Of a stretch of 64,000 bases of DNA, positions 8,852 through 51,616 are shown in pieces. The stretch is from a virus: positions 1 to 64,000 of the IMG/VR virus record IMGVR_UViG_3300032304_002264, one strand, 5' to 3'. A model generated the notes under the pieces. The model did no database searches. It was not told the origin of the DNA and was given only the letters and a program-made list of their open reading frames with translations. A program made the translations under genes and the position numbers. Within the stretch, counting starts at the first letter, position 1. The number at the start of each line of letters is the position of its first letter.

Positions 8852-9613
8852 ATGGAAAAAGGATTTAAAGAATTGTATAGCTTCTCTGTTGACAGAGAGG
8901 TAGAAAAGGAAGTCAGCTCCACTAAAAAAGACAAGAAAACAGGAGACGAAATCAAGGTGACTAAAAAAGTCAAGGAGATGGAGCCTTTGGTAATTAAGCT
9001 CAAAAAGCCTTCCCGCCGTGAACTTGAGGAGGCTGAGCTAGAATTTAGCGTTGAAATGAGCAAGTGCATTAAAAAGGGCATTCTCACTAAAGCTATGTTG
9101 GCTAAGAAGTATAGCGACACGGGAGGTCTTATGAGCGAAGACGACGCTCAAGAACTTGTGGACAACTACAAAAAGATTTTCGAATTACAGTCGGAATATT
9201 CAAGATTGGAAATCGTTCAAAACAAAACCGAAAAACAAACCGCTAGAGTTTCTGAAATAGCAGCCGAACTGCAAGTAGTTCGTCGCAAAATCGTGGAAAC
9301 CGAATCTAACTACCAATCTCTTTTCGATCATACCGCTGACGTAAAAGCTCAAAATAGATTGATTCTGTGGTATGTTATTATGCTCACCTATATTCAGGGC
9401 GCTGATGATGAGAGTCCAAAGCCTTATTTTGGCGTTGGTGACTTTGATGATAAGCTCGAAGAGTATTACAAACAAGAAGAATCCGACGATTCGCTATATT
9501 TCTTGATTACAAAGAAAGCTGCGACAATTTTCGCATTCTGGTTCTTCAATCAAGCTTCAGACAAAGATTCTTTTGATGATTTAATGAAGAGAGTCGAGAC
9601 TGGTGATATTTAA
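8852..9613 (+). CDS. Probable tail assembly chaperone
   Basis: 253 aa, charged and helical, two genes upstream of the tape measure. Confidence 0.5.
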   Translation: MEKGFKELYSFSVDREVEKEVSSTKKDKKTGDEIKVTKKVKEMEPLVIKLKKPSRRELEEAELEFSVEMSKCIKKGILTKAMLAKKYSDTGGLMSEDDAQELVDNYKKIFELQSEYSRLEIVQNKTEKQTARVSEIAAELQVVRRKIVETESNYQSLFDHTADVKAQNRLILWYVIMLTYIQGADDESPKPYFGVGDFDDKLEEYYKQEESDDSLYFLITKKAATIFAFWFFNQASDKDSFDDLMKRVETGDI

Positions 9614-9616
9614 TCC

Positions 9617-10588
9617 GTGAGCGAAGAAGAATATATTGGAATTGTTGGCGAAATATTTGACGGTTACACTGATATAAATTATCAAGGAAAAACCGTCTAC
9701 ATCAAACATTTCTCCATTCGAGACCAAAGATATATTCACAGATTTTACAATAAATATAAATCAATCGCAGAATCAAAAGGCATCCCCTCGGAAGAGGAGA
9801 TGCTTAATTCTTTGCGTCTAGACGAGTTGTGGAGCGATGAAGACGACCGCAAAATCGTTAGCTTAGAGGAGGATATAGAAGGTTTGCAAGGCTCAAAGAG
9901 GTCTTCATTTCTGCCGTCTCAGAAAAAGAACATTCAAGCAACCATCGACTCAAAAAGAAAAGATTTATATTTTTTATTAAATAAAAAAGCAGAACTCGTT
10001 GGTAAAACATCTGAGCGTTACGGTTCGCAGCGGTCCAATGAAGAATTCATTCGTTATTTGATATATTCAGACCAACAATGCTCCCATCATTTCTTCACCG
10101 ATGAAGATTTCGCGGAGTTGTCAGAAGAGGATTTGGAATTCTTCGTTAAAGAGAATGATGCTATTAGTCAACGACTCAACGAATCTAATATTCAACATGT
10201 TGTGTTGCGAGACTTTTTCAATATGTATATTTCGCAAACCGAAGACGTTTCGTCGTTTTATGGCAAACCGATTATCGAGCTTTCTGTTTATCAGCTGAAG
10301 CTGGCAATCTATGCAAGAATATTTTTCAATATGTTTCAATATCACGAAGATATTCCAGAAAGAGCAAAGAAAGATCCAGAAGCCATTTTCGACTTCGTGG
10401 AAAGAAAAAAGGGCAACAACTCTAAATCTAGTTCGAACAATGAAAAAGGAGCTTCCGCCGTGTTCGGCGCTACAAAAGAAGATTTGGAAATAATTGATCC
10501 AAACGCTCGAACAGTTAATCTTTCCGACGAGATTAGCAAAAAAGGCGGCGTGATGAATATGGATGATTTGATTGAATTAATGGGGTGA
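9617..10588 (+). CDS. Probable second tail assembly chaperone
   Basis: 323 aa, GTG start, immediately upstream of the tape measure. Confidence 0.45.
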   Translation: MSEEEYIGIVGEIFDGYTDINYQGKTVYIKHFSIRDQRYIHRFYNKYKSIAESKGIPSEEEMLNSLRLDELWSDEDDRKIVSLEEDIEGLQGSKRSSFLPSQKKNIQATIDSKRKDLYFLLNKKAELVGKTSERYGSQRSNEEFIRYLIYSDQQCSHHFFTDEDFAELSEEDLEFFVKENDAISQRLNESNIQHVVLRDFFNMYISQTEDVSSFYGKPIIELSVYQLKLAIYARIFFNMFQYHEDIPERAKKDPEAIFDFVERKKGNNSKSSSNNEKGASAVFGATKEDLEIIDPNARTVNLSDEISKKGGVMNMDDLIELMG

Positions 10589-10630: not shown

Positions 10631-13600
10631 ATGTCTCAGTCTATTCAAATACCCGTTACCCAAGTAGGTTTAGAGCAGAGCATCGCTGCGGCTATGAAGC
10701 GCGTGGGCAACTCTTCTCAAATTAATTTGGGAACTAACTCTAAGCAAATTAATGCGCTGAGCCAGCCTCTTGGTAGAATTACTGGTCAGGCTGACGAGTT
10801 TTCTAAATCCATGGCAGCGGCTAACGCCCGTGTTTTGGCGTTCGGAGCTTCTGCAAGTATTATTGCTGGCGTATCTGTAGCGATGTCGGGACTTTTATCA
10901 AGCACGATTAAAGTTGAGAAAAGTTTAGTCGAAATCAATGCTGTTTTGGGCGTAAGTGGAGATAAGCTGGATAAATTTGGTCAAGGCATCTTTAATGTAG
11001 CAAAAAATACAGGCAAATCGTTTGAAGAAGTTGCTACGGGCGCGTTAGAATTAGCTCGGCAAGGTTTAAGCGCCGAAGAGACCCTGACTAGATTGAATGA
11101 CGCTTTGATTCTTTCAAGGCTTTCGGGTTTGGATGCGGCCAAATCTGTAGAGGGTTTGACGGCAGCATTTAACTCGTTTAAATCTTCTGGAATTTCGACA
11201 GCCGAAATTCTTAATAATATTGTTGCCGTTTCTCAAAAATTCGCTGTTTCTGAAAAAGATATTATTGAAGGTCTCGGAAGATCCGCTTCAGTTGCGGATT
11301 TAGCAGGAGTTTCATTTAATGAGTTGGCGGCTATTATAACAGCTGTGCAAGAAAAAACGGCTAGAGGTGGAGCCGTTATTGGCAACAGCTTTAAGACTAT
11401 TTTTGCTAGAATACAAGATAAGGCTGTTCTTTCTGATCTGCAAGACATGGGTATTGCAGTGACGACTCTTCAAGGAGATGTGCTTCCAGCATTAAAAATA
11501 TTAGAAAATTTGGCGGCTCAGATGGATGGCTTTTCTCAAATTGAGCAAGCAGATATTTCTAAAAAACTTGGCGGTATTTATCAATTAGATAAGCTGTTGG
11601 CGGCTTTAAAGGACTTGTCATCCGAATCTTCGGTATATCGAGCGGCGTTAAAGGAAATCGAAATGGCTGGTGATTCTGCATATAAAAAGAATGCCGTTCT
11701 CAATGAAACCCTAGCGTCCTTAATTAACAAAGTTACTGTAAGCGCTGAACAGCTTGGCGCAAAACTCGGCGAGATTGGTGTGACAGATAATCTTAAAAAC
11801 CTATTAGGATTCTTCAATAGCCTTCTCGAAGGCATCCAAAAAGTTTTGGGAGAAGAAAGCGGATTAGGCAATTTGGTTCGAGGGCTTGTTAAGGGATTAG
11901 GCAACTTCTTCGCTGGTCCTGGACTCGCTTTATTCGGAGCTATCATACTCAAGCTTTCCAAAGACTTGGTTCAATTCGGATTCGCCAGCTTAAAAGCTTT
12001 CTTTGGTATTGGTCAAGCTGCGAAAGAGGTACAGAGTGTCGAAAGCGCAATTTCTCAAGTCTTGGCGAGAAACGTCGATCTCCAGCAAAAACTTTTTCAA
12101 TTGGAGGGCAACAGAGCGGGGCAATTGAAACTGATTACTGGCGCACTGGTCGAACAGGAAGCTCTTCTCCGCAGAAGCGCGAGCATTTCTTCTGGATTAG
12201 CCGCTCCTCTCTATAATGTGGGAGTCAGAGCCTCAGATTCGGGATTGAGAATAAAAAACAAAGCTGGCGGTTATATGCCAGCAGTCGCCAAAGAAAGTCA
12301 AGCAATCAACAGCGGAGTCGGTGGCGCTCGTAGGGGTGACAAGCCTGTGGTTATGCCTAATTTCAATTTTGGACAAGGCAAAAAAGGAACGGTTGTCGCG
12401 CACACGGGCGAATACGTTGTTCCTAATTTTGGCGGTGGAAAAGGCTCTGCCATTTTTAACCGCGATATGGTGCAAAAAATGGGGCTTCCTGATGGAGCGA
12501 AAAAGATTACGGCTTCTGGAGGATTAATTCCGAATTTTAAAGATGTTGAAATTACAAAAAAAGTTTCAGAATTCTCTTCCTTGGGTAGATTAGTTACTGC
12601 TAAAAAGGTAGATTCGATAGATTCGTTTACGTCCTCAATATCTCCAATCGAACAGACTTTAACAAGCGCAGAATATACTAAAAAAGCTCAAAAGCAATTA
12701 AAAGAAATTGTCCCGAAGTTCGGCAGAAACAATTTGCAAATTAATCAAGCGAAACTCGATCAAACACTAGGGTTTTTTAAAAAAGCGGGGGTTGATACCA
12801 CTTCGATTCAAACGTTTAAAAGCGCAGTCCAAAATTTGGATACCAAAAGGCCGACATCAGGACAATTTTTAAACATTCAGAATAGAATGAAGGGCATTTT
12901 GGGCGAAATCGACGCATCAGAAATGAGCGGCCAAAAATTGAATCAAGGCAATTCGTTTCTTGATTTGTCTGATGGCAGTGAAGTTAAAACGGTAAAAACT
13001 CAAAAAGCTTCTGAGATTTTAAAAAAAGGAATCAATCAGTATCTGTTGTCGAGCAATATTTATGATGGAGAAGATAATAAAACTCAACTTGGCAAGATCC
13101 CCGTATATTTACCCAAGGGAACTCCTCTTTTAAATTCGGCTTCTGGCTTCATTCCAAACTTTGCGCCAAAATTTAACGCCGAAACAGTTAGACAATACGC
13201 CAACGATATTGAAAAATACAAAAACCCAACAAAAGACTTTTATGAATTCCCAGACGGCACTGGCGGATACGGAGCCAACGTAAGACTCGTCTTGTCCAGA
13301 TCTCAGTCGAAAGCCGTTTCCAATAAACAGGAAAAAGAAAAGAAAATATCAGACAAAGGATTTTACAATCTAGATGCCGACGCACTCGGAGGAATTCTTT
13401 TAGTTTCTCCTAGATTTGGTAAATCCAAGGGATCTTTAGATACTTCGATGCCGATTGGCAAAATACCTTTCTTTAACCAAGCTAATACCCCCTCTATTGA
13501 TAAAAATAAATATATCAAACTAAAGGGAATTAAAACAGCCAATACTCCAAGCGGCAGAGATTTGCAAGCATTGCAAGGAGATATAAGCCAATTGTTTGCT

Positions 13601-16600
13601 GGTGGAATTGTTGACCTCGCTTACAAGCTGTATGGTGGGACTTTCGATCCAGCAAGCGGAGGCGAATTCGCCAGTAAGTTAAAATCATTAGATCCATCCA
13701 AAAAGCAACAATTATTGCCCGCCGCCGCGCAAGGAGACTTGTTCGAGGCTGCTGGCAAGGTAGCTCTTAATAGTTTCGCCAACCTAGAATCTTTATTTGG
13801 TTCAGCGGAACAAAGCCGACCTTTTGATTTCCAAAACGCCAGCGCATTGCAAAAAATGTTCGGTGTTAATGCCCGAAGAGGAGAAGCGAAAAGAGGAGGA
13901 GAGAAAAACTTTTCTTCATCAGACCAAGTTTCTGGAATAGTAAAAAAGGTATTTAACGATCCTGAATATTCACTCACTGCTTTAGAGTCTTTGAGGGGGC
14001 AGGGCGCATTTAATTTTTCTAAAGCACAAAAAGCTGCAAGCGAGGCTAGTGCTGCAAGCACCTCTAAAGCTGCAAGCGCGGCTAAAGCTGCAAGCGCGGC
14101 TAAAGCTGCAAGCGCGACTAATGCGGCTGGTGGTTTTATTCCTAATTTTGCAAATTACGAAGACGATAATATCCCAAGCTATGTCAGAGAAGACATGCAA
14201 AAAAGTCCGAGCTTCAAAAGAATTCAATCTTTGTATAATAAATTTCCGAACATTTCTTATTTAAGCAGGGGTGCGGAGTCTTTCGCATTCAAAAACAATG
14301 GAGAAGTTCTCAAGGTTCCCACTTTTAAATATGCTGGTAAAGATAGATTAAAAGATAAAATTGGTGGTATAAATGATATGAATTGGAGCGCGGCATCCGA
14401 TCAATTATCTTTTTTGGCTCCTAACTTGAAAATTATTCCGCCTAAAACAAGCGGCGTTGTAATTTCACAACCTTTCGCTGGGGAAACTGTGGGCAACGTT
14501 ATTAAGGATTATAAAAAAGGGGACTCCATAGGGAAAAAAGCGAGCCAAATTTTCAATTCTGCGCAAAGACTCAACCCAAGAAAACCAAATTGGTTGAAGC
14601 CGCTATCTGTAGACAATGGCTCAAGTCACAATTTCACTTTCCCAGAAAATCTTAGCCAAGCAAAAAAAGATTATTTCAATAACCCGAAAACATCTGCTGA
14701 CGAAATATTCAATAGAAACAAAATCGGGCTGATTGACCTTGGGGTTTTTAGATATTTTTCCAAACAAGCAAGAGAAGAAGAGAAAAAAATTACCCAAGGT
14801 AGTGTTAAGGCTGATGGCTTTGTGCCGAATTTTGCTGATTTTTCGAGCCTTAATTATACAAAAACTCCCGAATACGCCGAAAACCAACAACGCAGACGTA
14901 GAAAAAAAGCAAATTATAAAAATGCTTCGGGCGCTATAGGTAAGATTTTCGGAGCGATTGATAAAGCGGGTCCAACTGTTCTTTTGGACGGAGTAATAAG
15001 TGGCGCGGAAATTCAAGGGTTAAATTTAGATTATATCAAAAGTCTTATTGAAAATAATGGAGCCATCGCTCAAATGTTTTTGGGAGATAAGGGTTCAAAT
15101 TTCGTAGTTCAAGCTAAAAAGTATGGCATTACTGTTCAGCAGTCTGCAATGAAAAAACTTACGTCTTTAGCCGCCAAGGGTTTAAATAAAATGCAAGGTT
15201 TAGCTGGGGGCTATCTCCCTAACTTCGCAAATCCTCTTCAAGATGCCGTTGGTCGTGAAATGGCGGCTGGTGTCCCAGCATCTCAAATATATATAGACAA
15301 AAACTCATCGTTGAAAAACGCCATGAACCCAATGGGCTTGATGGTCGCTAATCGTCGTGATGAACCCGCTGGCGGATTCCAAGGAATCAACCGCGCCAGA
15401 AGAGAGGGGGCCAATCCAATGACTTATGGTGCTGCTGGTGGGTTTGTGCCGAATTATGTAGAGGCCAATGTGCGACCATATATCGGCCAGACGAGAACGC
15501 AAGCTTTAGATGCGGAAAAAAATGATTATAGAGCAGCGCTTAAAGAATTAGCTAAGGAATTAAGAGAGGCGAGAAAAGACTTAATGTATACTAAAAAGGG
15601 AGAGGTCCAACAAAGACTCGCTTTACAAGACCGCATAAAAAGCCTCAAAGAAAATAGCTCTACATTAAAAGCTCAATCTGAAGCAAATAGAAAAGCCATC
15701 ATACAGCAAACAAGAGGCGTTTTAGGAACAGGTAGAACGGCAACATTGCGTCAAGCGACAGTCACGAGCTCTGGATCTGGAGCTGGAGGAAATAGAGATA
15801 TGCTTGGAACTATTTTTGCAGTTCAGGGAGCATTGAGTGTTTTAACTGGAGCAACAGAGGGTGCTACCGAAGGCTTTGGTTTATTTGCTAATACACTTTC
15901 ATCGGCGGCTGGCACAGCAACAACAGCTATTTTTGCCAGCCAAGGCTTGGCGACAGCTTTACCTAAGTTTGCTGGTGTTCTAGGACCCGCTGGAATTGCA
16001 ATTGGCGGGCTAACAGCAGCATATCAAATTGGAACCACACTAGTTAATAAGTATTCAGGAATCACTTCCGCCGTTGCTGCATCAGTAGAAGCAATGGGCA
16101 AAGCGGCAGAGGGGGCGGCTATTAGTTTATCCACAGTTGGAGCGGCGAGAAAAGAAGAAATTAAAAAAAGAGCAAAAGAAATAGGAAGCAATTTAAGTTA
16201 TGGAGAAGTAACGCAAAACAAAGTAGGTGGAACATATGATAGAACGGGTAGATATACACCAGAAAGTACAATTAGTTTTCAAAAGGAAGCTCAATTCCAA
16301 GGAGAAATAGGTGGAGTATTAAATCAGGATTTGCGAAAGCAGTATTATTCAGTAATTGAAAGCGCTACCGCACAACAAGTTCCAGAAAGTACAATTAAAG
16401 GACAAATTGAAATAATAAAAAAAGATGGAATAATTCTAGCTTCTGAATTGAGAAGTTTCTCTTTAAAAATGGCAGATGCCGCGAAAGGATCTTCAAAACA
16501 AGTTAAGATTTTCTTAAACTCAATTAGAGAGAGTGCGGCTGGAGTTTCAGATAAATTAGCTGGAATGTCTGAGGAGCAGTTCGGTGCGCTTTTAGACACC

Positions 16601-19600
16601 TCTACAATTCAAGATCCCGAAAAACGCGCACAAGCGGCTGGATATGCAACGGCAGCGGAGTATAAAGATGCGAATTATAAATTTAAGGGAGCTAATTTAT
16701 CAGATAGAATTCAAACCCAATTGGAAATATCAGAAGAACAATACAATAAAGTATTTAAAGATTTAGATGATAAACAAAAGGGCGATATATTAACTAAAGC
16801 AAGAACAGAGGCCATAGCTACAAAGAGTCAAAAAGAAATAGATGAGCCTCAAAAAGAAAGAGACTTACAAGTAAATCTTGGAAGATTACAAGCTGAGATA
16901 AATTTAAATCAAAAATTAAGCGATAAGAAAAAAATAATTCTTAATGAAGAGCAAGCGCAAAAAGAAAAAATAGCGGAAATTGAAAATAATATATCTCTAT
17001 CTGAGAATGCAAAATTAAAAGAGATAGCAAAAATTAATAAGGAATATGGAAAATCCATCGCTTTATTAAATGAACAAGAGCAACAAGCAAAAAATATAGG
17101 AGACGCGCTCATTAGTGGACTAACTGGAGTAGCGGGAATTTCTGGAGATCAAATTCCTGGGTTTGCAGATAAAATTAAATTAAAAGTATTACCTAAATTT
17201 GATGGTAAAGATATTAATCTTTATCAAGACCAATTACGAAATTTACTAATCGACCCAGCATTAGAATTACCGTCAGAAGCCGTCAAGCCATTGATTGAAG
17301 CGTTGTCCAAAGCAGTAGTGCTTAATAAAGAATCTTCAGATGAAAAAGAAAAACAAATAGCCATATTAGAAAAAGAATATGGCATTCAAATAAAATCAAT
17401 TGACGCATCATCAGATAAGCTATCTTTAGAAAAACAAATCAGTGCGCAAATCGAGGCTCGCAACTCTGAGTCATCTTTCAAAATTGAAAATAGAGTATTA
17501 AATAATGCTTACGAAACTTTATCAGTTAACAAAGAAATTGAACAAATTAAAAGACAAACATCTCTTAATGAATTGCAAAAAGCTGAAGAAGTCTACAAAT
17601 TAGAACTAAAGAGAAAAGATTTGGAGTCCACTGGAATAGGAATTGGTTTAGAGCAAAAAATATTAGATATAGATCAAGATCTAATTAGTAAAGCTAGATC
17701 AGCAATTAAAGATTCTGGGATGATAGCTTCTGGTGGATTACGTTCAGATTTAACGCTCGAACAACTTCAAAAAATAGCTGGTGCAGATCCTGGCGTTTCA
17801 GAAGAAATTAAATTTGCTATAGAAAACGCCAAAAGACAAAGAGAATTAGCTCAAAAAGCAGCGCAAAATCAACAAGCTGGTCTTGGCGATGTAACAAGAG
17901 AAGGTGTTTTAGATAAAGTTGATAGAGGATTTTTTGGTGGAATCAATGACAGCGTGATAGCTCTTGAAAATCAAATTAATACATTCGCATTCGACATTGG
18001 AGAAAAAATACCTCAAATGTTCTCAGACAACATGTCTAGCGCCATCAATAAAATGATTGAGGGCGGCGAAAGTTTCAGCAGTGTATTACGCGGAGCGGCC
18101 TACGAATTTGTCAAAGGCATAAATCAAGCAAATATAAAAAACCTATCTGATCAGTTTTCCAAATCATTATTTAGTGGCGGGGCGGGTCAAACTAATAGTG
18201 GTGGTGGAGGATTAGCGCAAGGTATTGGAAGCTTTTTCTCCAACATGTTTATGGCCTCTGGCGGCATGGTCAACGGAGGCTCTGGATCAAAAGATGATGT
18301 TCCAGCGATGCTTATGGGCGGCGAATATGTTGTTAATAAGAAAGCTGTCTCCAAATATGGAGCGCAGTTCTTAGAGTCTGTAAACAATGGAACTTTAACT
18401 GGATACGCTCAAGGTGGATCGGTGCAAAGAGGTCCTCAAGGCAACTTCTATACCCCAGGAACTTTTGGTCAAGGAGCTATCGAAGGCAAGAGAAACCTTT
18501 TGGACTTCGCTACTCAAACTGGCACAACTGGTCAATTCGATAAAATAGTCAATCAATCTGGTTATCAAGCTATTGATTTAGAGCCAGAAAGCTCAAGGCT
18601 TTCGGTTTCTGGAATGAGAAACTCTCCGCAGTTTGAAGCGACTCAAGCGGCGAAAGAACAAGCTTTCGATCTTTATTTACAGCAATACAACGCTGAACTT
18701 GAGGCGAAAAAAGCAGAAAAAGAACAAAAGAAAGCCTTCAGAAAACAATTGATGATGTTAGCAATTTCCGCAGTGGCAGCTCCAGTTCTTGGTGCGGCGG
18801 GAGTTGGCTTTGGAGAAGCGTTTAAGGGTGCTGCTGGCCAAGGACTAATCTCTCAACTTGGAGCTGGAGCCAAAGGCATTTTCACTGGTTTCAATGGAGT
18901 GGGGGGATTAGGAAATCTTTTCAGCAGTGTCGGAAAAGCGTTTACGGGCGACTTTGCTGGCGCAAGCCAGCAATTCAAATACTCGCAGGGTATTATACCG
19001 AAGGCTATTCCAAAGGCCGAGCCAGTTTCTGGAATTAGCAGAGGAATTTCTGCTGGTTCAGTGAGATCTGGAGGAGAAGCTGCGCGAATAGGAGATATAG
19101 ACCCATTGGAATTCGATCTTCCATCGAGCGACACTTCTCTAAGCCCATTAGCCGCAAAAGAGTTTCAAAAAAGACAACAAGCCTATTCAGTATTGACCAA
19201 TATAGACGGGTATTCTCCACAGGCGGCGAAATACGTCATTCAAAATAGTTCGGGTGAATATTTATCAAAAGTGATAGCAAGAGGCGAATTTCTTAAAATG
19301 CGAGCCTCCTCTAGTTCTGTAATTTTTGAAACACAAGAACCCAAAAAGAATGCGACGGGCGGAATGATCCCATCAACTTCTGGCATCGACACTGTTCCAG
19401 CAATGCTTTCTGGCGGCGAGTTCGTTATGAACCGCTCCGCAGTTCAGGGAATCGGATCGCAAAATCTTCAATCCATGAATTCTGGTGGGACTTCTATCAC
19501 TTCAGAAGAGACGAGCAAAAAACTCAACGAACAGCTCTTAGCTAAACTAGATGAGCTTATCAGCGCATCTGGATCAACTGGCGATATCACTATCAACGTT

Positions 19601-19738
19601 GCTCCATCTGGACAATCATCCCAAGAAAACTCGCAAGATCCATCGGCGGGTCGCCAACAACTTGCTCGCCAAATCAAAGACGCGGTATTGCAAATCATCA
19701 ACGACGAGAAAAGAATTGGAGGATCTTTAAGAAGATAA
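10631..19738 (+). CDS. Tape measure protein with inserted enzyme-like cassettes
   Basis: 3035 aa. N-terminal TP901-like core (ELARQG, LSRLSGLD, TARGGAVIGNSFKTIFARI), hydrophobic segments, coiled coils, D.VPAML.GGE(Y/F)V motifs near the C-terminus. Confidence 0.9.
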   Translation: MSQSIQIPVTQVGLEQSIAAAMKRVGNSSQINLGTNSKQINALSQPLGRITGQADEFSKSMAAANARVLAFGASASIIAGVSVAMSGLLSSTIKVEKSLVEINAVLGVSGDKLDKFGQGIFNVAKNTGKSFEEVATGALELARQGLSAEETLTRLNDALILSRLSGLDAAKSVEGLTAAFNSFKSSGISTAEILNNIVAVSQKFAVSEKDIIEGLGRSASVADLAGVSFNELAAIITAVQEKTARGGAVIGNSFKTIFARIQDKAVLSDLQDMGIAVTTLQGDVLPALKILENLAAQMDGFSQIEQADISKKLGGIYQLDKLLAALKDLSSESSVYRAALKEIEMAGDSAYKKNAVLNETLASLINKVTVSAEQLGAKLGEIGVTDNLKNLLGFFNSLLEGIQKVLGEESGLGNLVRGLVKGLGNFFAGPGLALFGAIILKLSKDLVQFGFASLKAFFGIGQAAKEVQSVESAISQVLARNVDLQQKLFQLEGNRAGQLKLITGALVEQEALLRRSASISSGLAAPLYNVGVRASDSGLRIKNKAGGYMPAVAKESQAINSGVGGARRGDKPVVMPNFNFGQGKKGTVVAHTGEYVVPNFGGGKGSAIFNRDMVQKMGLPDGAKKITASGGLIPNFKDVEITKKVSEFSSLGRLVTAKKVDSIDSFTSSISPIEQTLTSAEYTKKAQKQLKEIVPKFGRNNLQINQAKLDQTLGFFKKAGVDTTSIQTFKSAVQNLDTKRPTSGQFLNIQNRMKGILGEIDASEMSGQKLNQGNSFLDLSDGSEVKTVKTQKASEILKKGINQYLLSSNIYDGEDNKTQLGKIPVYLPKGTPLLNSASGFIPNFAPKFNAETVRQYANDIEKYKNPTKDFYEFPDGTGGYGANVRLVLSRSQSKAVSNKQEKEKKISDKGFYNLDADALGGILLVSPRFGKSKGSLDTSMPIGKIPFFNQANTPSIDKNKYIKLKGIKTANTPSGRDLQALQGDISQLFAGGIVDLAYKLYGGTFDPASGGEFASKLKSLDPSKKQQLLPAAAQGDLFEAAGKVALNSFANLESLFGSAEQSRPFDFQNASALQKMFGVNARRGEAKRGGEKNFSSSDQVSGIVKKVFNDPEYSLTALESLRGQGAFNFSKAQKAASEASAASTSKAASAAKAASAAKAASATNAAGGFIPNFANYEDDNIPSYVREDMQKSPSFKRIQSLYNKFPNISYLSRGAESFAFKNNGEVLKVPTFKYAGKDRLKDKIGGINDMNWSAASDQLSFLAPNLKIIPPKTSGVVISQPFAGETVGNVIKDYKKGDSIGKKASQIFNSAQRLNPRKPNWLKPLSVDNGSSHNFTFPENLSQAKKDYFNNPKTSADEIFNRNKIGLIDLGVFRYFSKQAREEEKKITQGSVKADGFVPNFADFSSLNYTKTPEYAENQQRRRRKKANYKNASGAIGKIFGAIDKAGPTVLLDGVISGAEIQGLNLDYIKSLIENNGAIAQMFLGDKGSNFVVQAKKYGITVQQSAMKKLTSLAAKGLNKMQGLAGGYLPNFANPLQDAVGREMAAGVPASQIYIDKNSSLKNAMNPMGLMVANRRDEPAGGFQGINRARREGANPMTYGAAGGFVPNYVEANVRPYIGQTRTQALDAEKNDYRAALKELAKELREARKDLMYTKKGEVQQRLALQDRIKSLKENSSTLKAQSEANRKAIIQQTRGVLGTGRTATLRQATVTSSGSGAGGNRDMLGTIFAVQGALSVLTGATEGATEGFGLFANTLSSAAGTATTAIFASQGLATALPKFAGVLGPAGIAIGGLTAAYQIGTTLVNKYSGITSAVAASVEAMGKAAEGAAISLSTVGAARKEEIKKRAKEIGSNLSYGEVTQNKVGGTYDRTGRYTPESTISFQKEAQFQGEIGGVLNQDLRKQYYSVIESATAQQVPESTIKGQIEIIKKDGIILASELRSFSLKMADAAKGSSKQVKIFLNSIRESAAGVSDKLAGMSEEQFGALLDTSTIQDPEKRAQAAGYATAAEYKDANYKFKGANLSDRIQTQLEISEEQYNKVFKDLDDKQKGDILTKARTEAIATKSQKEIDEPQKERDLQVNLGRLQAEINLNQKLSDKKKIILNEEQAQKEKIAEIENNISLSENAKLKEIAKINKEYGKSIALLNEQEQQAKNIGDALISGLTGVAGISGDQIPGFADKIKLKVLPKFDGKDINLYQDQLRNLLIDPALELPSEAVKPLIEALSKAVVLNKESSDEKEKQIAILEKEYGIQIKSIDASSDKLSLEKQISAQIEARNSESSFKIENRVLNNAYETLSVNKEIEQIKRQTSLNELQKAEEVYKLELKRKDLESTGIGIGLEQKILDIDQDLISKARSAIKDSGMIASGGLRSDLTLEQLQKIAGADPGVSEEIKFAIENAKRQRELAQKAAQNQQAGLGDVTREGVLDKVDRGFFGGINDSVIALENQINTFAFDIGEKIPQMFSDNMSSAINKMIEGGESFSSVLRGAAYEFVKGINQANIKNLSDQFSKSLFSGGAGQTNSGGGGLAQGIGSFFSNMFMASGGMVNGGSGSKDDVPAMLMGGEYVVNKKAVSKYGAQFLESVNNGTLTGYAQGGSVQRGPQGNFYTPGTFGQGAIEGKRNLLDFATQTGTTGQFDKIVNQSGYQAIDLEPESSRLSVSGMRNSPQFEATQAAKEQAFDLYLQQYNAELEAKKAEKEQKKAFRKQLMMLAISAVAAPVLGAAGVGFGEAFKGAAGQGLISQLGAGAKGIFTGFNGVGGLGNLFSSVGKAFTGDFAGASQQFKYSQGIIPKAIPKAEPVSGISRGISAGSVRSGGEAARIGDIDPLEFDLPSSDTSLSPLAAKEFQKRQQAYSVLTNIDGYSPQAAKYVIQNSSGEYLSKVIARGEFLKMRASSSSVIFETQEPKKNATGGMIPSTSGIDTVPAMLSGGEFVMNRSAVQGIGSQNLQSMNSGGTSITSEETSKKLNEQLLAKLDELISASGSTGDITINVAPSGQSSQENSQDPSAGRQQLARQIKDAVLQIINDEKRIGGSLRR
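12263..15460 (+). repeat. Dispersed peptide repeat (A/S)xG(F/Y/L)(I/V/L)PN(F/Y), six full copies plus one partial, in the tape measure
   Basis: AGGYMP 12263 (partial), ASGGLIPNF 12512, SASGFIPNFA 13136, AAGGFIPNFA 14123, ADGFVPNFA 14810, AGGYLPNFA 15203, AAGGFVPNY 15431. Confidence 0.9.
14030..14119 (+). repeat. 18-bp tandem repeat, five units (KAASAA-like)
   Basis: AAAGCTGCAAGCGCGGCT: two exact copies (14066, 14084) and three variants (14030, 14048, 14102). Confidence 0.9.
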
Positions 19739-46117: not shown

Positions 46118-46743
46118 ACGACTTACTAAGATTCAAAAAACAACAGAACTACATCACCATTGATGTAGAGACCGAAGGCTTAAACCTTATATCATCTAAA
46201 CCTTGGCAAGTATCATGGATTATTTGTCGCGGCGATAAGATGATATCCAAACACGATCATTTCATTCGCTGGGACAACATCAATGTCTCTGCTGACGCTG
46301 CGCGAATTACGGGTTTTAATAAAAACCACTATTATGAAAAAGCGGAATCTCCCATCGAAGTTTTTAAACAGCTATCAAAGTATCTTTACGATCCATCGTT
46401 TTTAGTGATCGGGCAAAATCTTCTTGGGTTTGATGTTTATATGATCAATGTTTGGCGCAAGCTAATGGGGATGAAAAGCGATAATTCTTATGTCAATAGA
46501 GTAATTGATACCAAGTCTATCTCGACAGCCATCTTCAAGAACATTCTGCCCGACAAAGAAAACTTTTTATCATGGCAATATAAGATGTTGCATATTCGCG
46601 AAAAAGGTCTAAAAACCAATCAAGCTTTCATGCTTAAATATTACGATATTCCCCATGACCCCAAAAGACTACATGACAGTCTTTATGATGTCGAAATGAC
46701 TTTTGAGATTTTCAAAAAACAAATTTTTAACATTGATTTATGA
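46114..46743 (+). CDS. DEDDh 3'-5' exonuclease (DnaQ-like)
   Basis: DVETEG, GQNLLGFD, IDT, LHDSLYDV. Confidence 0.85.
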   Translation: MNDLLRFKKQQNYITIDVETEGLNLISSKPWQVSWIICRGDKMISKHDHFIRWDNINVSADAARITGFNKNHYYEKAESPIEVFKQLSKYLYDPSFLVIGQNLLGFDVYMINVWRKLMGMKSDNSYVNRVIDTKSISTAIFKNILPDKENFLSWQYKMLHIREKGLKTNQAFMLKYYDIPHDPKRLHDSLYDVEMTFEIFKKQIFNIDL

Positions 46744-49298
46744 TCCAACAATTTTCTAATTACGAATCTCCATTTCCAGCGGGGGTTAAGCTCCCTGAAA
46801 TTAAAATTGAGCAGCGCCATTATCAAAGCTTGGGTATCGCCAACGATACTTCCAACTTTGAGTTTTTGCGCCGCCTCTGCTTTGAGGGCGTTAAGAAAAG
46901 AGGCATTCTAGATAAACCCAACAAAGAAAAATATTTCGAACGCTTAAAGATGGAGCTGTCGGTCTTTGAGGAGCTGGGATTCATTGACTATGTTTTGCTG
47001 AATTGGGATGTCATTAATTTCTGTCATGAAACAGGCGTTCCTACAGGCGCGGGTCGCGGTTCAGCCCCTGGAAGTTTAGTGCTATATGCCATTGGCGTAA
47101 CCAACATTGATCCAATTAAACACGATCTATTCTTCGAGAGGTTTGTCTCGAAAAGCCGTGCGCGAAAAATCGAACATAATGGAGAGATCTTTTTGGACGG
47201 CTCTCTTTTGTGCGATGTTGATAACGATATTAGTTATGACAGACGACAAGAGGTGTTGGATTATATTAATAAAAAATATGCTGGCAGAACTTCTAAGATT
47301 CTCACGCTGAACACTCTCAGTAGCAAGCTATGTATTAAAGAGTGCGGCAAGATTGTCGGCGAAATGTCGGAATCGGACGTTAATATTATTAGTGATTCCA
47401 TCTCCAAAAAGTTTGGCAAGGTCGCTAAGCTTGGAGCGGCATACGAAGATAGCGAAGTCTTCAAAGAATTCGCGGACAAAAATAAGAGAGTCTATCGCGT
47501 TGCTAAAAAAATCGAAGGACTCAACAAGAACGTGGGAGTTCATCCTTCTGGTATTGCTATCAGCTATTACTCGATCCAAGAAGTAATGCCCGTGCAAACC
47601 ACTGGGGAAGAGGCTCTTGTTTCGGGGTATGACATGAACGACGTTGCCGAGTTGATGGTCAAGTTTGATATTCTTGGTCTGCGCACATTGTCGGTAGTTA
47701 ATGATGTTTGCCAACAAATTGGTTTAAACGCGCACGATATTGATGTAGAGCATCCATCTATTTACGCCGCTCTTCAAGTGCTGCAAGCTCCCATGGGACT
47801 TTTCCAGATCGAGGCGGACACAAACTTCAAGGTGGCTCAAAAAGTCGCGCCACGTAATCTAGAACAGCTTTCGGCGGTAGTGGCTATTGCAAGACCAGGA
47901 GCATTGGATTTCCTTGACAAATACGTGGAATACGCAAGAACAGGAGAGTCTCAGTCTATCCACCCTTTCTTCGATGATGTTCTCTCCTACACTGGCAACA
48001 TTCCTCTGTTTCAAGAGCAGTTGATGAAGATGGCTGTAAAAGTCGGATTCAGTTTGGATGAATCAGAACAATTGCGTCGAATTGTCGGCAAGAAAAAAGT
48101 TGATAAAATGGCTGAGTGGAAAGATAAGATCGCTCAAAAAATCAAAGAAAATAATCTCGACCCGATCATTGGAGATGTTTTATGGAAGGTCGCCGAAGAC
48201 TCTGCAAATTATTCGTTCAATAAATCGCACTCGATGGCTTATGCGTATCTTGCCGCTACGACGGTATATCTTAAATTCAACTATCCCCAGCAATTCTTTT
48301 TGAGTCTTTTGAAATTTGCTCAATTTGAGCCGAACCCCCACGAAGAAATCCTGAAAATTTCACAAGAGCTATCATCGTTTGGAATCAAACTGTTGCCCCC
48401 CAGTCTCACAAAGTCGCAAATTGATTTTTCTATCGAAGGCGAAGATATCCGTTATGGTCTTAATACGATCAAGGGCGTTTCTACGAAGTCTTTAGAGTCG
48501 TTGCTAGAGTTCCGCCAGAACGCATTTGAAAACAAGTATGAGGTGTTCTTGGCGGCAAAACAGGCGGGTGTCAATATTGGCCTGATGTCTGCATTGATTC
48601 AAGCAGGTTTGCTTGACCACTTTGTTGAAAAAGACCGATGCCGATTAGTTCTAGAAGCTCAAACATTTAATATTCTAACAGATCGAGAAAAAAGAAATTT
48701 AATCATCTTGGGAGAAAAATACAATTTCAATCTCTTGGATTGCATTAGCGATTGCGTTAAGACAAAATCTGTCGCAGACGACAATAAAGCCGTTTTTTCC
48801 GATAAGCGCTTTGAAACATTTAAAACTAAATATAAACCATATCGACAAATCTATGACCAAAACAAACAACATCTCAAATATGCTAATTGGTTTTTTGAGA
48901 GTAAATTATTGGGCTACAGTTATTCACAAAACATCCGAGATGTTTTTAAGGAAGCTGGCAGGTCTCATTTTGTTTCTTCACAAGACTTACATTCAGTTGA
49001 TAACAACACTTCCGTATGCTCTGTCGGGTTTGTAATAGACTCTATTTGCAGAACGAGCGCAAATGGCAACAAATACGCCCGTATTGATATCGCCGATGAA
49101 TGTGGAAACATTTCAATGCTGCTTATGGATAATTCGCGAGAAGAAAAACTAACAAGCTTCCTTAATTCTGGTAAAAAAATTCCTAAAAAGGGGGCGGTGG
49201 TGATCGGTATCGGCAGAAAAAATAACGACATCATTATGCTTGACAAGATGGTGCTTTTGGAAGATAAAATATATATGAAGCTCTCAGAGCTTAAATGA
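46740..49298 (+). CDS. dnaE: DNA polymerase III alpha catalytic part (no PHP)
   Basis: GRGSAPGS, FFERF, DVDND, GVHPSG, KFDILGL, FQEQLM, YSFNKSH, C-terminal OB fold. Confidence 0.93.
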   Translation: MIQQFSNYESPFPAGVKLPEIKIEQRHYQSLGIANDTSNFEFLRRLCFEGVKKRGILDKPNKEKYFERLKMELSVFEELGFIDYVLLNWDVINFCHETGVPTGAGRGSAPGSLVLYAIGVTNIDPIKHDLFFERFVSKSRARKIEHNGEIFLDGSLLCDVDNDISYDRRQEVLDYINKKYAGRTSKILTLNTLSSKLCIKECGKIVGEMSESDVNIISDSISKKFGKVAKLGAAYEDSEVFKEFADKNKRVYRVAKKIEGLNKNVGVHPSGIAISYYSIQEVMPVQTTGEEALVSGYDMNDVAELMVKFDILGLRTLSVVNDVCQQIGLNAHDIDVEHPSIYAALQVLQAPMGLFQIEADTNFKVAQKVAPRNLEQLSAVVAIARPGALDFLDKYVEYARTGESQSIHPFFDDVLSYTGNIPLFQEQLMKMAVKVGFSLDESEQLRRIVGKKKVDKMAEWKDKIAQKIKENNLDPIIGDVLWKVAEDSANYSFNKSHSMAYAYLAATTVYLKFNYPQQFFLSLLKFAQFEPNPHEEILKISQELSSFGIKLLPPSLTKSQIDFSIEGEDIRYGLNTIKGVSTKSLESLLEFRQNAFENKYEVFLAAKQAGVNIGLMSALIQAGLLDHFVEKDRCRLVLEAQTFNILTDREKRNLIILGEKYNFNLLDCISDCVKTKSVADDNKAVFSDKRFETFKTKYKPYRQIYDQNKQHLKYANWFFESKLLGYSYSQNIRDVFKEAGRSHFVSSQDLHSVDNNTSVCSVGFVIDSICRTSANGNKYARIDIADECGNISMLLMDNSREEKLTSFLNSGKKIPKKGAVVIGIGRKNNDIIMLDKMVLLEDKIYMKLSELK

Positions 49299-49312: not shown

Positions 49313-51616
49313 ATGATGGAACTAGATCAACAAAATTGGACATTTAGCGCTTTAGAATCTTGGCTGGAGGTCTCTAAGATTGCCAGATCCAAAAATCACA
49401 AAATCACTAATATTTATCATCTTTTTGTTTCTCTGTGGGAGAGAAGCAGCTCTAATTTCTTAGAATTTATAGACAACAGGGGTCTCGCGATTAAGCCGAG
49501 GACTATACACGCCATTGTTGACAAATTCGCCAAAAAGAATCCAGACATGTTTTTGAACTCCCAAATGGAGTCGATTATTCAAAAAGAAATTGAAAATTGC
49601 GTTGATAAAGCTTCCCTCTTAGCCAACAAGCATGGTAATTTATTTATTGGAACCGAGCATTTTATTTGGAGCATTCTCGAATGCTCAGAAAAGTTTTGCG
49701 AATGTTTGCTAGAAAACGGGATAGATACGGAGCATTTTAAAAATTGTATTGAAGCGTTTTTAACAAGCGATGCTTTGTCGATTGAAGAGGATGAGGACTT
49801 TGATGAATCAGGCGAAGTTGCTCATAAAGATGCAAACGAAGAGCAGCAGCGGCTTAATGAATCTCAAATCAAGAGATTTTGCACTCTCTTGAACGAGACG
49901 GTTACAAAGAGCGACTTTGGCGTGATTTCGGGACGAGATAAAGAAATCAGCGATCTTGAAGAGATATTAAGCTGCAAAATTAAAAGCAATTGCATTCTAG
50001 TGGGAGAAGCTGGCACGGGAAAAACTTCGGTGGTTGAAGGTTTGGCTCAAAATATTTCTTCTCCAAAATATACAGGATCTCTTAAAAATAAAAAGATCTA
50101 TTCGCTAGATATATGCGCCCTAATCGCTGGTAGCAAATATCGAGGTCAATTTGAAATGAGGCTCAACAAACTTCTGGAAGAGTTAAAAGCAGATCCGAAT
50201 GCGATATTATTTATAGATGAAATTCACAATATCGTCGGAGCGGGATCAGGAAGAGACAATTCCCCCGATTTATCCAATTCGATTAAGCCAGCGTTAGCTC
50301 GCGGTGAAATCAAATGCATAGGAGCTACGACATTTTCAGAATACAAGAAATATATTGAAAATGACCCCGCTTTAGCTCGAAGATTTTATACTTTAGAGAT
50401 TAAAGACCCCGATATAGATCGAATGAAAGATATCGCTCTTAAAGCTTTACCAAGTTATGAAAATTACCATAAGATAAAATTCCCCAAAAAACTGTTGAAA
50501 ACATCAATCGACATGTGCGAAACCTACTTGCCGCACAAAAGATTCATCGACAAAGCTTTTGATGTGATTGATCGCTCTTTTGCTAGAGCAAAAATTAGAA
50601 TTTTAAGTTCCGATGATCAAGTGCAGGAAGAAATTCCTCAAACAGTTGTTCTCGAAGATCTATTGCAAGCTGTTGCTAATCTGTCAGGAATCAGTGCAGA
50701 TATTCTAAAAAACAATTTAGAAAAAAAGTTTTCCAATTTGGCCACTAATTTTAAAAAAGAAATTTTTGGACAGGACAAGGCTATTGATAAAATATATAAT
50801 TGCCTCGCTTGCGCCAAGGCTGGACTGAACTCCGAGAACAGACCTCTTTCTAGCTTTTTGTTTGTTGGTCCAACAAGCGTTGGTAAAACCTATACCGCTA
50901 AAAAAATCGCCAAAGAATTCTTCGGCAATGACAGAAGTTATCTTCAGCTCAATATGAGCGAGTATCAAGAGCCAGCGTCCATATCGCGCCTTCTAGGAGC
51001 TAGCGCGGGATACGTTGGATTTAGCGATGGAGGAACCCTCACCGAGTTTGTTCGCCAGAATCCCAATAGTCTTATTTTGTTTGATGAAATTGAGAAGGGA
51101 GATTTCTCCGTTTTGAATGTTCTTCTCCAAATTTTAGACGAAGGCAAATTACGAGATGGGCAGGGTCGCGAAATTGACTTTTCGCGCACGATTCTTGTTC
51201 TTACCAGTAATATTGGAGCGTCAGAAGCGGGTAAATCGTCTATGGGATTCATCTCTAATCCAGATGACCCAGTAAACGTTTTTGAATCATCCGTCAAAAG
51301 AACACTGTCTCCAGAAATGCGGTCGCGTATTGATGAGACTATTGTGTTCGAAAAAATCAATGAAGAGGCTATCTCTAAAATCTTTGATCGACACGTTGCC
51401 GAAATGAAAGAAAAAGCGCATAAAAAAGGAATAAAAATTGACTGCCAAATTAAAATATCCGATCTGGTAATCGACAGCAGCAAGCTTCACGCCCGCGAAA
51501 TTAAAAATATATTTAGAAACGAAGTTCAGACAAAAGTTGCACAATTCATCGCTTCTGGCAAAAAAAATCGCAATTTGAAGATAAAAGTTGTTGACAAAAA
51601 GGTTCAGTTGTCTTAG
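49313..51616 (+). CDS. ClpA/ClpC-type AAA+ unfoldase
   Basis: Clp-N repeat (IGTEH), GEAGTGKT, KYRGQFE, LFIDEIH, GPTSVGKT, GYVG, LFDEIEK, MGF loop. Confidence 0.9.
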   Translation: MMELDQQNWTFSALESWLEVSKIARSKNHKITNIYHLFVSLWERSSSNFLEFIDNRGLAIKPRTIHAIVDKFAKKNPDMFLNSQMESIIQKEIENCVDKASLLANKHGNLFIGTEHFIWSILECSEKFCECLLENGIDTEHFKNCIEAFLTSDALSIEEDEDFDESGEVAHKDANEEQQRLNESQIKRFCTLLNETVTKSDFGVISGRDKEISDLEEILSCKIKSNCILVGEAGTGKTSVVEGLAQNISSPKYTGSLKNKKIYSLDICALIAGSKYRGQFEMRLNKLLEELKADPNAILFIDEIHNIVGAGSGRDNSPDLSNSIKPALARGEIKCIGATTFSEYKKYIENDPALARRFYTLEIKDPDIDRMKDIALKALPSYENYHKIKFPKKLLKTSIDMCETYLPHKRFIDKAFDVIDRSFARAKIRILSSDDQVQEEIPQTVVLEDLLQAVANLSGISADILKNNLEKKFSNLATNFKKEIFGQDKAIDKIYNCLACAKAGLNSENRPLSSFLFVGPTSVGKTYTAKKIAKEFFGNDRSYLQLNMSEYQEPASISRLLGASAGYVGFSDGGTLTEFVRQNPNSLILFDEIEKGDFSVLNVLLQILDEGKLRDGQGREIDFSRTILVLTSNIGASEAGKSSMGFISNPDDPVNVFESSVKRTLSPEMRSRIDETIVFEKINEEAISKIFDRHVAEMKEKAHKKGIKIDCQIKISDLVIDSSKLHAREIKNIFRNEVQTKVAQFIASGKKNRNLKIKVVDKKVQLS

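Follow-up and report, generated by a model that had tools for sequence, protein, structure and literature searches.

Residues 1175–1393 of a phage tail tape measure protein (TMP) form an exchangeable module that, judging from structure prediction (AF2) and structural searches (Foldseek and VIA), has a kinase-like fold. This cassette (P0001, 219 residues) is encoded at positions 14153–14809 of the window, that is, of the whole 64,000-nt stretch of DNA analyzed here. All features below are located on the plus strand. Taken as a whole, our reading is that the cassette is a minimal kinase-like domain that is delivered with the virion and phosphorylates host targets; we regard the chances of this complete reading as evenly balanced.

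The carrier protein and its exchangeable cassettes

The TMP gene (10631–19738) is a single ORF of 3,035 aa. It matches PF10145 from Pfam at aa 124–315 (E = 9e-28) and TIGR01760 (E = 2e-35), and the PHROG tape measure families match it as well. Downstream of the gene lie lambda-like tail-tip genes, specifically Phage_tube_2-like and gpL-like minor tail genes. Both the HMM match and the place upstream of the tail-tip genes identify the carrier as a phage tail tape measure protein. It comes from an uncultured freshwater phage, and GenBank phages gave no match to 25 kb of sequence (megablast) nor to the capsid protein (tblastn). The TMP contains no cysteine, compared to 1.04% in other phage proteins, and cysteine is also absent altogether from the relatives of this TMP. 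Such a composition would suit exit from the cell or the virion in an unfolded state.

Seven linkers with the consensus G-[FY]-x-P-N-[FY] are found along the TMP from aa 546 to aa 1609. Two of them, GGFIPNFA (14129–14152, TMP aa 1167–1174) upstream and ADGFVPNF (14810–14833, TMP aa 1394–1401) downstream, directly adjoin the cassette. The preliminary description had placed the cassette inside the TMP and exactly between two linkers, and translation of the ORF agrees with both statements. A role of the linker as a DNA recombination site was rejected, given that codons differ freely between the copies; for the same reason the linker is considered to be conserved at the peptide level. A literature search for the linker peptide returned no papers.

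Homology to the relatives stops at the linkers. The cassette is 35–40% identical to its counterparts in L002 and P0005, compared to 78–93% for the N-core, cassette B and module E. The nearest allele (73% identity) resides in P0008, behind an unrelated cassette. One metagenome contig is 96% identical to the window up to position 14055 and resumes at 15221, with 616 nt replacing 1,165 nt; the loose ends at its break points read GGFIPNF and GFLPNF. In four metagenome runs, the region 14279–14886 was almost uncovered at a likeness of at least 80%. Diverged alleles such as that of L002 escape detection at this threshold, and hence the low coverage does not imply kinase-less relatives. The cassette is an exchangeable module, one of several cargo cassettes situated between linkers in the middle part of the TMP.

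Four real relatives of the cassette were identified among 1.8 billion proteins searched. At least three of the four sit inside TMPs, and the remaining one, a fragment of 178 aa, terminates at the same linker. P0006, a candidate from the representative search, was rejected as a spurious repeat protein. P0005, P0007 and P0008 entered the analysis as whole proteins. A wider search of a 5.8-billion-protein set for stand-alone or fused homologues yielded only P0003, P0004 and P0008, and no stand-alone homologue was found in either protein set. No locus was confirmed when genome and metagenome contigs were scanned with the family alignment.

Conserved residues and the predicted fold

The five motifs reported in the preliminary description are present in the TMP frame in the order given there. 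The cassette starts with a two-helix extension (14153–14254, cassette residues 1–34, model helices 9–17 and 21–30), which, according to the alignments, is missing in the short alleles of L002 (L002:9983–10498) and P0005. Strand 1, the Gly-rich loop and strand 2 are formed by YLSRGAESFAF (14258–14290, model strands 35–39 and 43–48) with invariant G1214 and E1216. Strand 3 contains VLK (14306–14314, model strand 51–56) with invariant Lys K1228. The last N-lobe strand and the hinge correspond to VVISQPF (14456–14476, model strand 103–107) with invariant Q1280. The catalytic loop DNGSSHN (14612–14632), in which D1328 and N1334 are invariant, is immediately followed by an invariant FTF. The DFG-equivalent GLIDLG (14726–14743, model strand 191–193) includes invariant Asp D1369 at 14735–14737; the position 14735 given for this motif earlier is that of its Asp codon. 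Further in the text the invariant residues are numbered within the cassette: G40 (G1214), E42 (E1216), K54 (K1228), Q106 (Q1280), D154 (D1328), N160 (N1334) and D195 (D1369).

The FTF strand and an insert occupy 14633–14725 (model strand 161–163, helices 169–175 and 182–187). The insert makes the stretch from the Asn of the catalytic loop to the metal-binding Asp about 22 residues longer than usual: the spacing from N160 to D195 equals 35 residues, compared to 13 between the corresponding Asn and Asp of PKA (textbook numbering). In the AF2 model the cassette stops about 25 residues past D195, with a single helix there, and therefore lacks the C-terminal subdomain that usually binds the substrate.

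Pairwise identity within the family across lineages is just 27–42%. In the 7-member alignment, 25 of the 165 core columns are invariant; G40, E42, K54, Q106, D154, N160 and D195 never vary. Five positions (the Gly-loop G, K, D, N and D) had been named in the preliminary description before any homologue was known, and all of them are among the invariant columns (rough hypergeometric P = 5.5e-5), so the motif match exceeds what is expected by chance. The Gly-rich loop reads SRGAES in the window and GSGAE or GEGQE in the relatives, with G40 constant. The strand-3 motif is V-[IL]-K throughout the family, and the metal-binding motif is GLID[LVM]G, with D195 directly after strand 191–193. The D-x5-N spacing of the catalytic loop, pointed out previously as a departure from the usual D-x4-N, holds for the window cassette and four relatives, whereas L002 and P0005 have D-x4-N. 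The catalytic-loop His159 varies across the family. Helices 63–75 and 78–88 contain no invariant acidic residue; at position 68 most members have D or E, and P0007 has R. The invariant E42 may stand in for the Glu of helix C, the usual partner of the Lys.

The AF2 model, which rests on just seven aligned sequences, has pLDDT 91 and pTM 0.83, whereas the model from the single sequence was unusable (pLDDT 39). The order of elements in the alignment-based model is b1-loop-b2-b3-helices-b4-b5-hinge-helices-loop-b7-b8, that is, the bilobal PKL fold. A bilobed prediction for residues 1175–1393 or so had been named beforehand as the check on the kinase assignment, and the model agrees with it. Each invariant residue is placed on the expected kinase strand or loop, including the K, D, N and D singled out earlier.

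Top Foldseek matches in PDB all have the kinase fold: APH(2''), capreomycin phosphotransferase, RIO1, PRPK, CDC7 and NleH2. An unbiased VIA search of 48,161 PDB chains produced 84 chains with Z ≥ 5, and all of the best 50 listed entries are kinase-fold proteins with Z from 5.3 to 7.4. The best ones are Rv3197 (Z 7.4, 158 aligned residues), RIO1 (Z 6.8, 165 aligned residues), MPH-E (Z 6.7) and HopBF1 (Z 5.7); many ePKs are also found among the matches. In BFVD the matches comprise kinases of phages and viruses, together with small phage proteins that are uncharacterised. These structural scores are middling (Z below 8, TM 0.3–0.4), and such a range can reflect a common arrangement only. ESM features of both the window cassette and the 35%-identical L002 cassette point to families of the kinase clan, namely SteC, YrbL, APH, OspG and T7 kinase, with a similarity of 0.92–0.93 to the OspG, T7 kinase and YrbL families. 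Thus the bilobal model with its Gly-loop, strand-3 Lys, catalytic Asp and Asn, and metal-binding Asp supports assignment of the cassette to the PKL-fold superfamily.

Likeness to known kinases and tail proteins

No family for the cassette was found in Pfam, NCBIfam or PHROGs, and no kinase family was recovered when four members of the family were searched against Pfam at E ≤ 10. Sequence searches of PDB, both with the single sequence and with the profile, gave 0 matches at E ≤ 10, and tblastn of the cassette against GenBank phages gave nothing even at E ≤ 10. The T7 kinase (PF27024), OspG (PF22303) and YrbL (PF10707) families have no HMM or profile match to the cassette; in particular, when the family alignment was compared with E. 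coli YrbL by hhalign, the probability was 0.1 and no link emerged. For the canonical ePK family (PF00069), neither an HMM match at E ≤ 10 nor the activation segment with APE and the C-lobe helices F to I was found. No sequence link from the cassette to an outside protein was found in these searches or in those of the two protein sets.

Truncated kinase domains have been described in phage 'polyvalent proteins' by Iyer, Burroughs, Anand, de Souza and Aravind in 2017 (PMC5512222). These kinases have lost the C-terminal subdomain wholly, while the ATP-binding and phosphotransfer residues are kept. They have Glu before strand 2, Gln in the last N-lobe strand, and an insert between the His and the phosphotransfer Asp (PMC5512222). 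The cassette shares three diagnostic features with them: the loss of the C-terminal subdomain, E42 directly before strand 43–48, and Q106 in strand 103–107. The cassette also has an insert ahead of the metal-binding Asp, of about 22 residues and located between N160 and D195; the loop His (H159) is not conserved in its family. Polyvalent proteins are giant multi-domain proteins predicted to be delivered with the virion and to undergo cassette-like recombination, with MuF-, portal- or otherwise linked carriers (PMC5512222). Tape measure proteins are nowhere mentioned in that paper, whereas the carrier of our cassette is a TMP. More generally, a search of literature titles and abstracts returned no description of a kinase inside a TMP.

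The minimal effector kinases NleH2 (4lrk), HopBF1 (6pwd) and OspG (PF22303) are about 160–200 aa long and, like the cassette, have no activation segment and lack most of the C-lobe. The Foldseek E-value for NleH2 is 9e-3, the HopBF1 match covers 130 aligned residues, and the OspG cluster is one of the ESM neighbors mentioned above. All three are delivered pre-made into the target cell; they are type III secretion effectors directed against eukaryotes, whereas the cassette resides in a phage tail protein directed against a bacterium. The best overall structural matches are RIO1, Bud32-PRPK (Z 6.7) and the ABC1-like Rv3197, in which both lobes and the N-terminal helices are covered (model residues 1–209 for RIO1). 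These are housekeeping enzymes of cells, with longer C-lobes and D-x4-N, and they have no sequence relationship to the cassette.

The cassette is close to T7 gp0.7 in ESM features, but membership in the T7 kinase family is not detectable, and there is no HMM match. The T7 kinase targets host proteins at an early stage of infection; it is made once the DNA has entered, from an early gene, and is not known to be a component of the virion. It was recently reported to disarm defences broadly (PMC13645617).

Two precedents concern the carrier. The protein gp96 of Thermus phage P23-45 is a TMP fused to the virion RNA polymerase, which acts at the start of infection (Chaban et al. 2024, PMC10770324). 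It has a single N-terminal polymerase, whereas here several exchangeable modules lie inside the protein between linkers, and the kinase-fold cassette is one of them. The TMP of mycobacteriophage TM4 carries a peptidoglycan-hydrolase motif (PMC1796659). There too a non-structural functional motif is found inside a TMP, but its target, the cell wall, is not in the cytoplasm, and no ATP is needed.

Predicted activity, delivery and alternative explanations

The proposed domain would be self-contained: an N-lobe with the Gly-rich loop and the strand-3 Lys, a hinge, and a C-lobe stump in which just the Asp and Asn of the catalytic loop and the metal-binding Asp would remain. All residues for ATP-Mg binding and phosphotransfer are kept across highly diverged relatives, and for this reason an active phosphotransferase is predicted as the most likely nature of the cassette. 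Several observations count against the main reading. They are the missing sequence link to kinases, the middling structural scores and the 7-sequence alignment, as well as D-x5-N, the lack of a conserved alpha-C Glu, the variable loop His and the 35-residue gap between N160 and D195.

The top structural neighbours include the small-molecule kinases APH and MPH, and hence a protein substrate stays only a candidate. The cassette could instead be an active kinase-fold enzyme that modifies a small molecule, an envelope component or a nucleotide compound, similarly to aminoglycoside, macrolide or lipid-type kinases. We consider this unlikely. In its favor, the best structural matches include APH(2''), MPH, capreomycin phosphotransferase and ABC1-like Rv3197, the model lacks the C-lobe that binds protein substrates, and ESM features recall APH too. 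However, RIO1, PRPK, NleH2, HopBF1 and many ePKs score equally well, and the nearest ESM clusters are those of OspG, SteC and T7 kinase. Moreover, the C-terminal helical subdomain that binds small molecules in APH-type enzymes is likewise absent.

A similarly low probability is assigned to a pseudokinase or nucleotide-binding scaffold without phosphotransfer, which could, for example, serve in binding, act as a plug, or be a spacer for tail assembly or length. The lengthened catalytic loop, the truncated C-lobe, and the fact that neither an alpha-C Glu nor the loop His is invariant agree with it, and the protein that carries the cassette is one that determines length. On the other hand, a mere spacer would not retain G40, E42, K54, D154, N160 and D195 unchanged at about 30% identity. 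The relatives add, drop and exchange cassettes, so the cassette is dispensable for the core job of the TMP.

The main reading further holds that the kinase is delivered. A TMP fills the tail tube and exits the tail ahead of DNA; if present in the virion, the kinase would reach the host pre-made, before any phage gene expression. There it may phosphorylate proteins of defence, transcription or translation, by analogy with the T7 kinase. The preliminary description proposed such a virion-delivered kinase acting on host proteins, similar to T7 gp0.7 but injected, and we infer the same from the location of the cassette inside a TMP, from the TMP-fused RNA polymerase of P23-45 (PMC10770324), and from cassette swapping. 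By a rough estimate, the lumen of a siphovirus tail would hardly have room for three folded copies of a 25-kDa domain, and therefore the cassette would have to travel unfolded and, on release after ejection and entry into the cytoplasm, refold.

The same estimate, by which folded cargo is ill-suited to the lumen, agrees with a kinase that works inside the cell that produces the phage, or while virions are assembled, and is not delivered. It could, for example, act late in infection on virion, chaperone or host proteins. It might be excised before tail completion at the conserved linkers, which could be processing sites. We find this less probable than either of the alternatives above: a free-standing gene would suffice for such a role, yet stand-alone homologues were not found in the protein sets searched, and the polymerase of P23-45 belongs to the virion and serves at entry (PMC10770324). 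Finally, a chance resemblance of motifs without a kinase fold, with which the absence of HMM matches and the poor single-sequence model agree, is very improbable and close to refuted by the confident alignment-based model, the exclusively kinase-fold structural matches among those listed, the conserved motifs and the independent agreement of language-model features.

Beyond virion delivery of a kinase, a broader interpretation is possible, to which we adhere only tentatively. The TMP may be a reprogrammable injection vehicle, from which cassettes would be ejected before DNA, refold in or at the cytoplasm and possibly be cut at the linkers. The kinase would then disable targets of host defence or takeover before the genome is exposed, and exchange of alleles at the linkers would reflect an arms race.

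Pfam, NCBIfam and PHROGs do not detect the family, so present annotations label such cargo simply as TMP. The cassette provides a structural anchor for the truncated kinases of polyvalent proteins, hitherto known from computational descriptions only. Phage kinases are known to disarm defences, but the studied example, T7, needs prior expression. If our reading is true, a kinase in the first protein leaving the tail would act before DNA meets restriction or other entry-stage defences, and the virion RNA polymerase of P23-45, the one experimentally shown TMP-fused enzyme, would be extended to a general system of exchangeable cargo.

Tape measure gene and its linkers

The kinase-like cassette (14153–14809, + strand; residues 1175–1393, 219 aa) is contained in a single unbroken ORF (10631–19738, + strand) encoding 3,035 aa. 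Tape measure models (PF10145, E 9e-28; TIGR01760, E 2e-35; several PHROG tape measure families) cover the N-terminal ~470 residues of this protein, and the gene is followed by those for a Phage_tube_2-like protein and then a lambda gpL-like minor tail protein. These matches and neighbours identify the ORF product as a long-tailed phage's tape measure protein (TMP). No GenBank phage similar at the DNA level or by the capsid protein was found; fragments of the TMP gene came mostly from runs labelled as freshwater or lake-water metagenomes. Cysteine is absent from all 3,035 residues, compared with 1.04% in twelve other window proteins, and also from the TMP relatives P0004, P0005, P0007 and P0008. 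The TMP contains only two tryptophans, both within the kinase cassette.

Immediately upstream lie ORFs 8852–9613 (253 aa) and 9617–10588 (323 aa), whose size and position are kept in the related IMG/VR loci L001 and L002. They match no Pfam or PHROG family and, judged by position, could be tail assembly chaperones. Elsewhere in the window, a DNA polymerase III alpha-like protein (46740–49298) adjoins a ClpB-like double AAA+ protein (49313–51616).

Seven linkers of the G-[GF]-x-x-P-N-[FY] type are located between TMP residues 546 and 1609. They split the middle of the protein into cassettes of ~200, 320, 220, 120 and 70 aa (residues 637–835, 846–1164, 1175–1393, 1403–1523 and 1533–1600; window 12518–15457), referred to as A, B, kinase, D and module E. 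The kinase cassette is bounded exactly by two of these linkers, as claimed in the preliminary description; they read GGFIPNF(A) and (A)DGFVPNF. Codons differ among the linker copies, so conservation is of the peptide rather than of DNA. Similar A-x-G-G...VPAML..GE[YF]V segments, whose starts resemble the linkers, are found near the TMP C-terminus and directly ahead of the cassette array. The family phrog_13338 is matched twice, best at residues 2542–2590; these matches and segments together fall in window regions 18254–19445 and 12263–12517.

Predicted fold and conserved residues

The motifs from which a kinase had been proposed were all recovered at their positions: the Gly-loop YLSRGAESFAF at 14258, the VLK lysine at 14306, the hinge-like VVISQPF at 14456, DNGSSHN at 14612, and GLIDLG at 14726, the Asp codon of which is at 14735. 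The cassette has no match in sequence libraries (Pfam, NCBIfam, PHROGs, PDB sequences). A phmmer search of 1.84 billion representative proteins yielded only four true relatives: P0004, P0005 and P0007, which are TMPs or TMP fragments, and P0003, a 178-aa fragment terminating at the same linker as the cassette. A fifth match, P0006, is a repeat protein and was rejected as spurious. P0008 came from further searches, as did L001, which encodes P0004, and L002, a syntenic phage with a TMP of 2,871 aa. No stand-alone homologue was found in the protein-set searches.

Across lineages the cassettes are 27–42% identical, with 25 of 165 core columns invariant. The invariant set includes G40, E42, K54, Q106, D154, N160 and D195 (G1214, E1216, K1228, Q1280, D1328, N1334 and D1369 of the TMP) and thus all five positions singled out in the preliminary description, a coincidence with a chance probability of ~5.5e-5. 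L002 and P0005 have D-x4-N in place of the window cassette's D-x5-N; the length of the loop thus varies while both D and N are fixed.

AlphaFold2 produced a useless model from the single sequence (pLDDT 39); with the seven-row family alignment, pLDDT was 91 and pTM 0.83. The elements of this model follow the order canonical for kinases: a pair of helices at the N-terminus; strand 1, the Gly loop and strand 2; strand 3 with K54; a second pair of helices; strands 4 and 5 with Q106; the hinge; helices D and E; D154 to N160; strand 7 (FTF); a two-helix insert; strand 8; D195; and one last helix. The G40–K54, K54–Q106 and Q106–D154 spacings (14, 52 and 48) are near those of PKA (~20, 49 and 45), and the N160–D195 interval is ~22 residues longer, PKA values being from textbook numbering.

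The top Foldseek matches in PDB were exclusively kinase-fold (APH(2''), capreomycin phosphotransferase, RIO1, PRPK, CDC7, NleH2; E about 1e-3, TM 0.3–0.42). In an independent VIA-align search of 48,161 representative chains, 84 had Z of at least 5, and all 50 entries listed were kinase-fold. They included Rv3197 (Z 7.4, rmsd 4.7, 158 aligned), RIO1 (6.8, 165 aligned), MPH-E (6.7), APH (6.4), TkArkI (6.0), HopBF1 (5.7) and YihE (5.5), where Z below 8 by itself can reflect a common arrangement, according to the tool's own warning. The structural search carries weight because the list is uniform, both lobes are covered and the motifs agree. Matches in BFVD were kinases of phages and viruses, along with small phage proteins that are uncharacterised. 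By language-model features, the window and L002 cassettes (35% identical) both recall kinase-clan clusters (SteC-like, similarity 0.95; YrbL, APH, OspG and T7 kinase, 0.92–0.93). A bilobed kinase fold is thus predicted, and the first refuting outcome named in the preliminary description, no such fold, does not hold.

Exchange of cassettes at linkers

Between the window TMP and that of L002 or P0005, identity is 82% in the N-core, 79% in the pre-cassette module and 89–93% in module E, compared with only 35–40% in the kinase cassette. Cassette B is 78% identical to that of L002 and 50% to that of P0005. The closest kinase allele (73%), from P0008, is located behind a cassette without a window counterpart. 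No related TMP has a homologue of cassette A or D, and cassette B and module E are common to the window and related TMPs.

A 16-kb contig from metagenome run X2 matches 10631–14055 at 96% identity, and its match picks up again at 15221; the 1,165 nt between them in the window are replaced by 616 nt. Loose ends at the break points carry ...GGFIPNF... and ...KGFLPNFAD. In contigs of the freshwater runs X4 and X6, 12537 is joined to 13139; the missing 601 nt equal cassette A plus one linker, so whole cassettes are gained or lost at linkers. Together, the identity contrasts and these joins indicate that cassettes are exchanged at linkers; the kinase cassette is either swapped for distant alleles or evolving much faster than its flanks. 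Both allele replacement and fast evolution are typical of host-interaction modules.

Two other cassettes were noted in related TMPs. In P0005, the one directly after the kinase cassette (residues 1368–1549) shows on visual inspection an Arg...Ser-x-Ser pattern (LFRGV, SASTD) that recalls ADP-ribosyltransferases, with no Pfam match. The 849-aa cassette of P0007 (residues 429–1277) has a P-loop (GAAGSGKTT) and weak matches to nSTAND_NTPase5 (E 0.0036) and to the cytidylyltransferase-related region PF16581 (E 0.041).

Kinase type and possible role

The cassette ends ~25 residues past the metal-binding Asp, and hence the activation segment and the entire C-terminal subdomain are absent. A clade of such truncated kinases has been described in phage 'polyvalent proteins' (Iyer et al., 2017; PMC5512222). 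Its diagnostic features are a missing C-terminal subdomain, a Glu that precedes strand 2, a Gln conserved in the final strand of the N-lobe and an insert ahead of the Asp. E42 and Q106 of the cassette match this description, and its insert of ~22 residues between N160 and D195 may correspond to that of the clade. The conserved His of the clade is not conserved in the cassette family (H159 varies), and that paper never mentions tape measure proteins. We consider the cassette a probable relative rather than a proven member. NleH, OspG and HopBF1, minimal effector kinases that are injected, are also similar to it in structure and size; membership in the T7, OspG or YrbL families was not detectable (Pfam on family members; hhalign against E. 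coli YrbL).

Virion-associated phage polyproteins with truncated kinases have already been published, as has the fusion of an enzyme to a TMP. In the literature searched, we found neither a kinase-fold cassette within a TMP nor the linker peptide described.

The analysis supports the predicted fold, the conserved residues, the TMP carrier and the modularity; the cassette is presumably catalytic. It could alternatively be a small-molecule kinase, with a substrate other than host proteins, or a pseudokinase or spacer, although a mere spacer would hardly keep G40, E42, K54, D154, N160 and D195 invariant. A further alternative is a kinase that acts in the producing cell. The favoured reading is a pre-made, TMP-borne minimal kinase. 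The TMP lies in the tail tube and is expelled first; the cassette would be present in the virion and would probably unfold and refold, perhaps with cleavage at the linkers. Precedents are gp96 of phage P23-45, a TMP whose virion RNA polymerase is active as infection begins (PMC10770324), and T7 kinase, described as an example of phage kinase effects on host proteins and defences (PMC13645617). By analogy with these, the kinase would act on host targets at entry.
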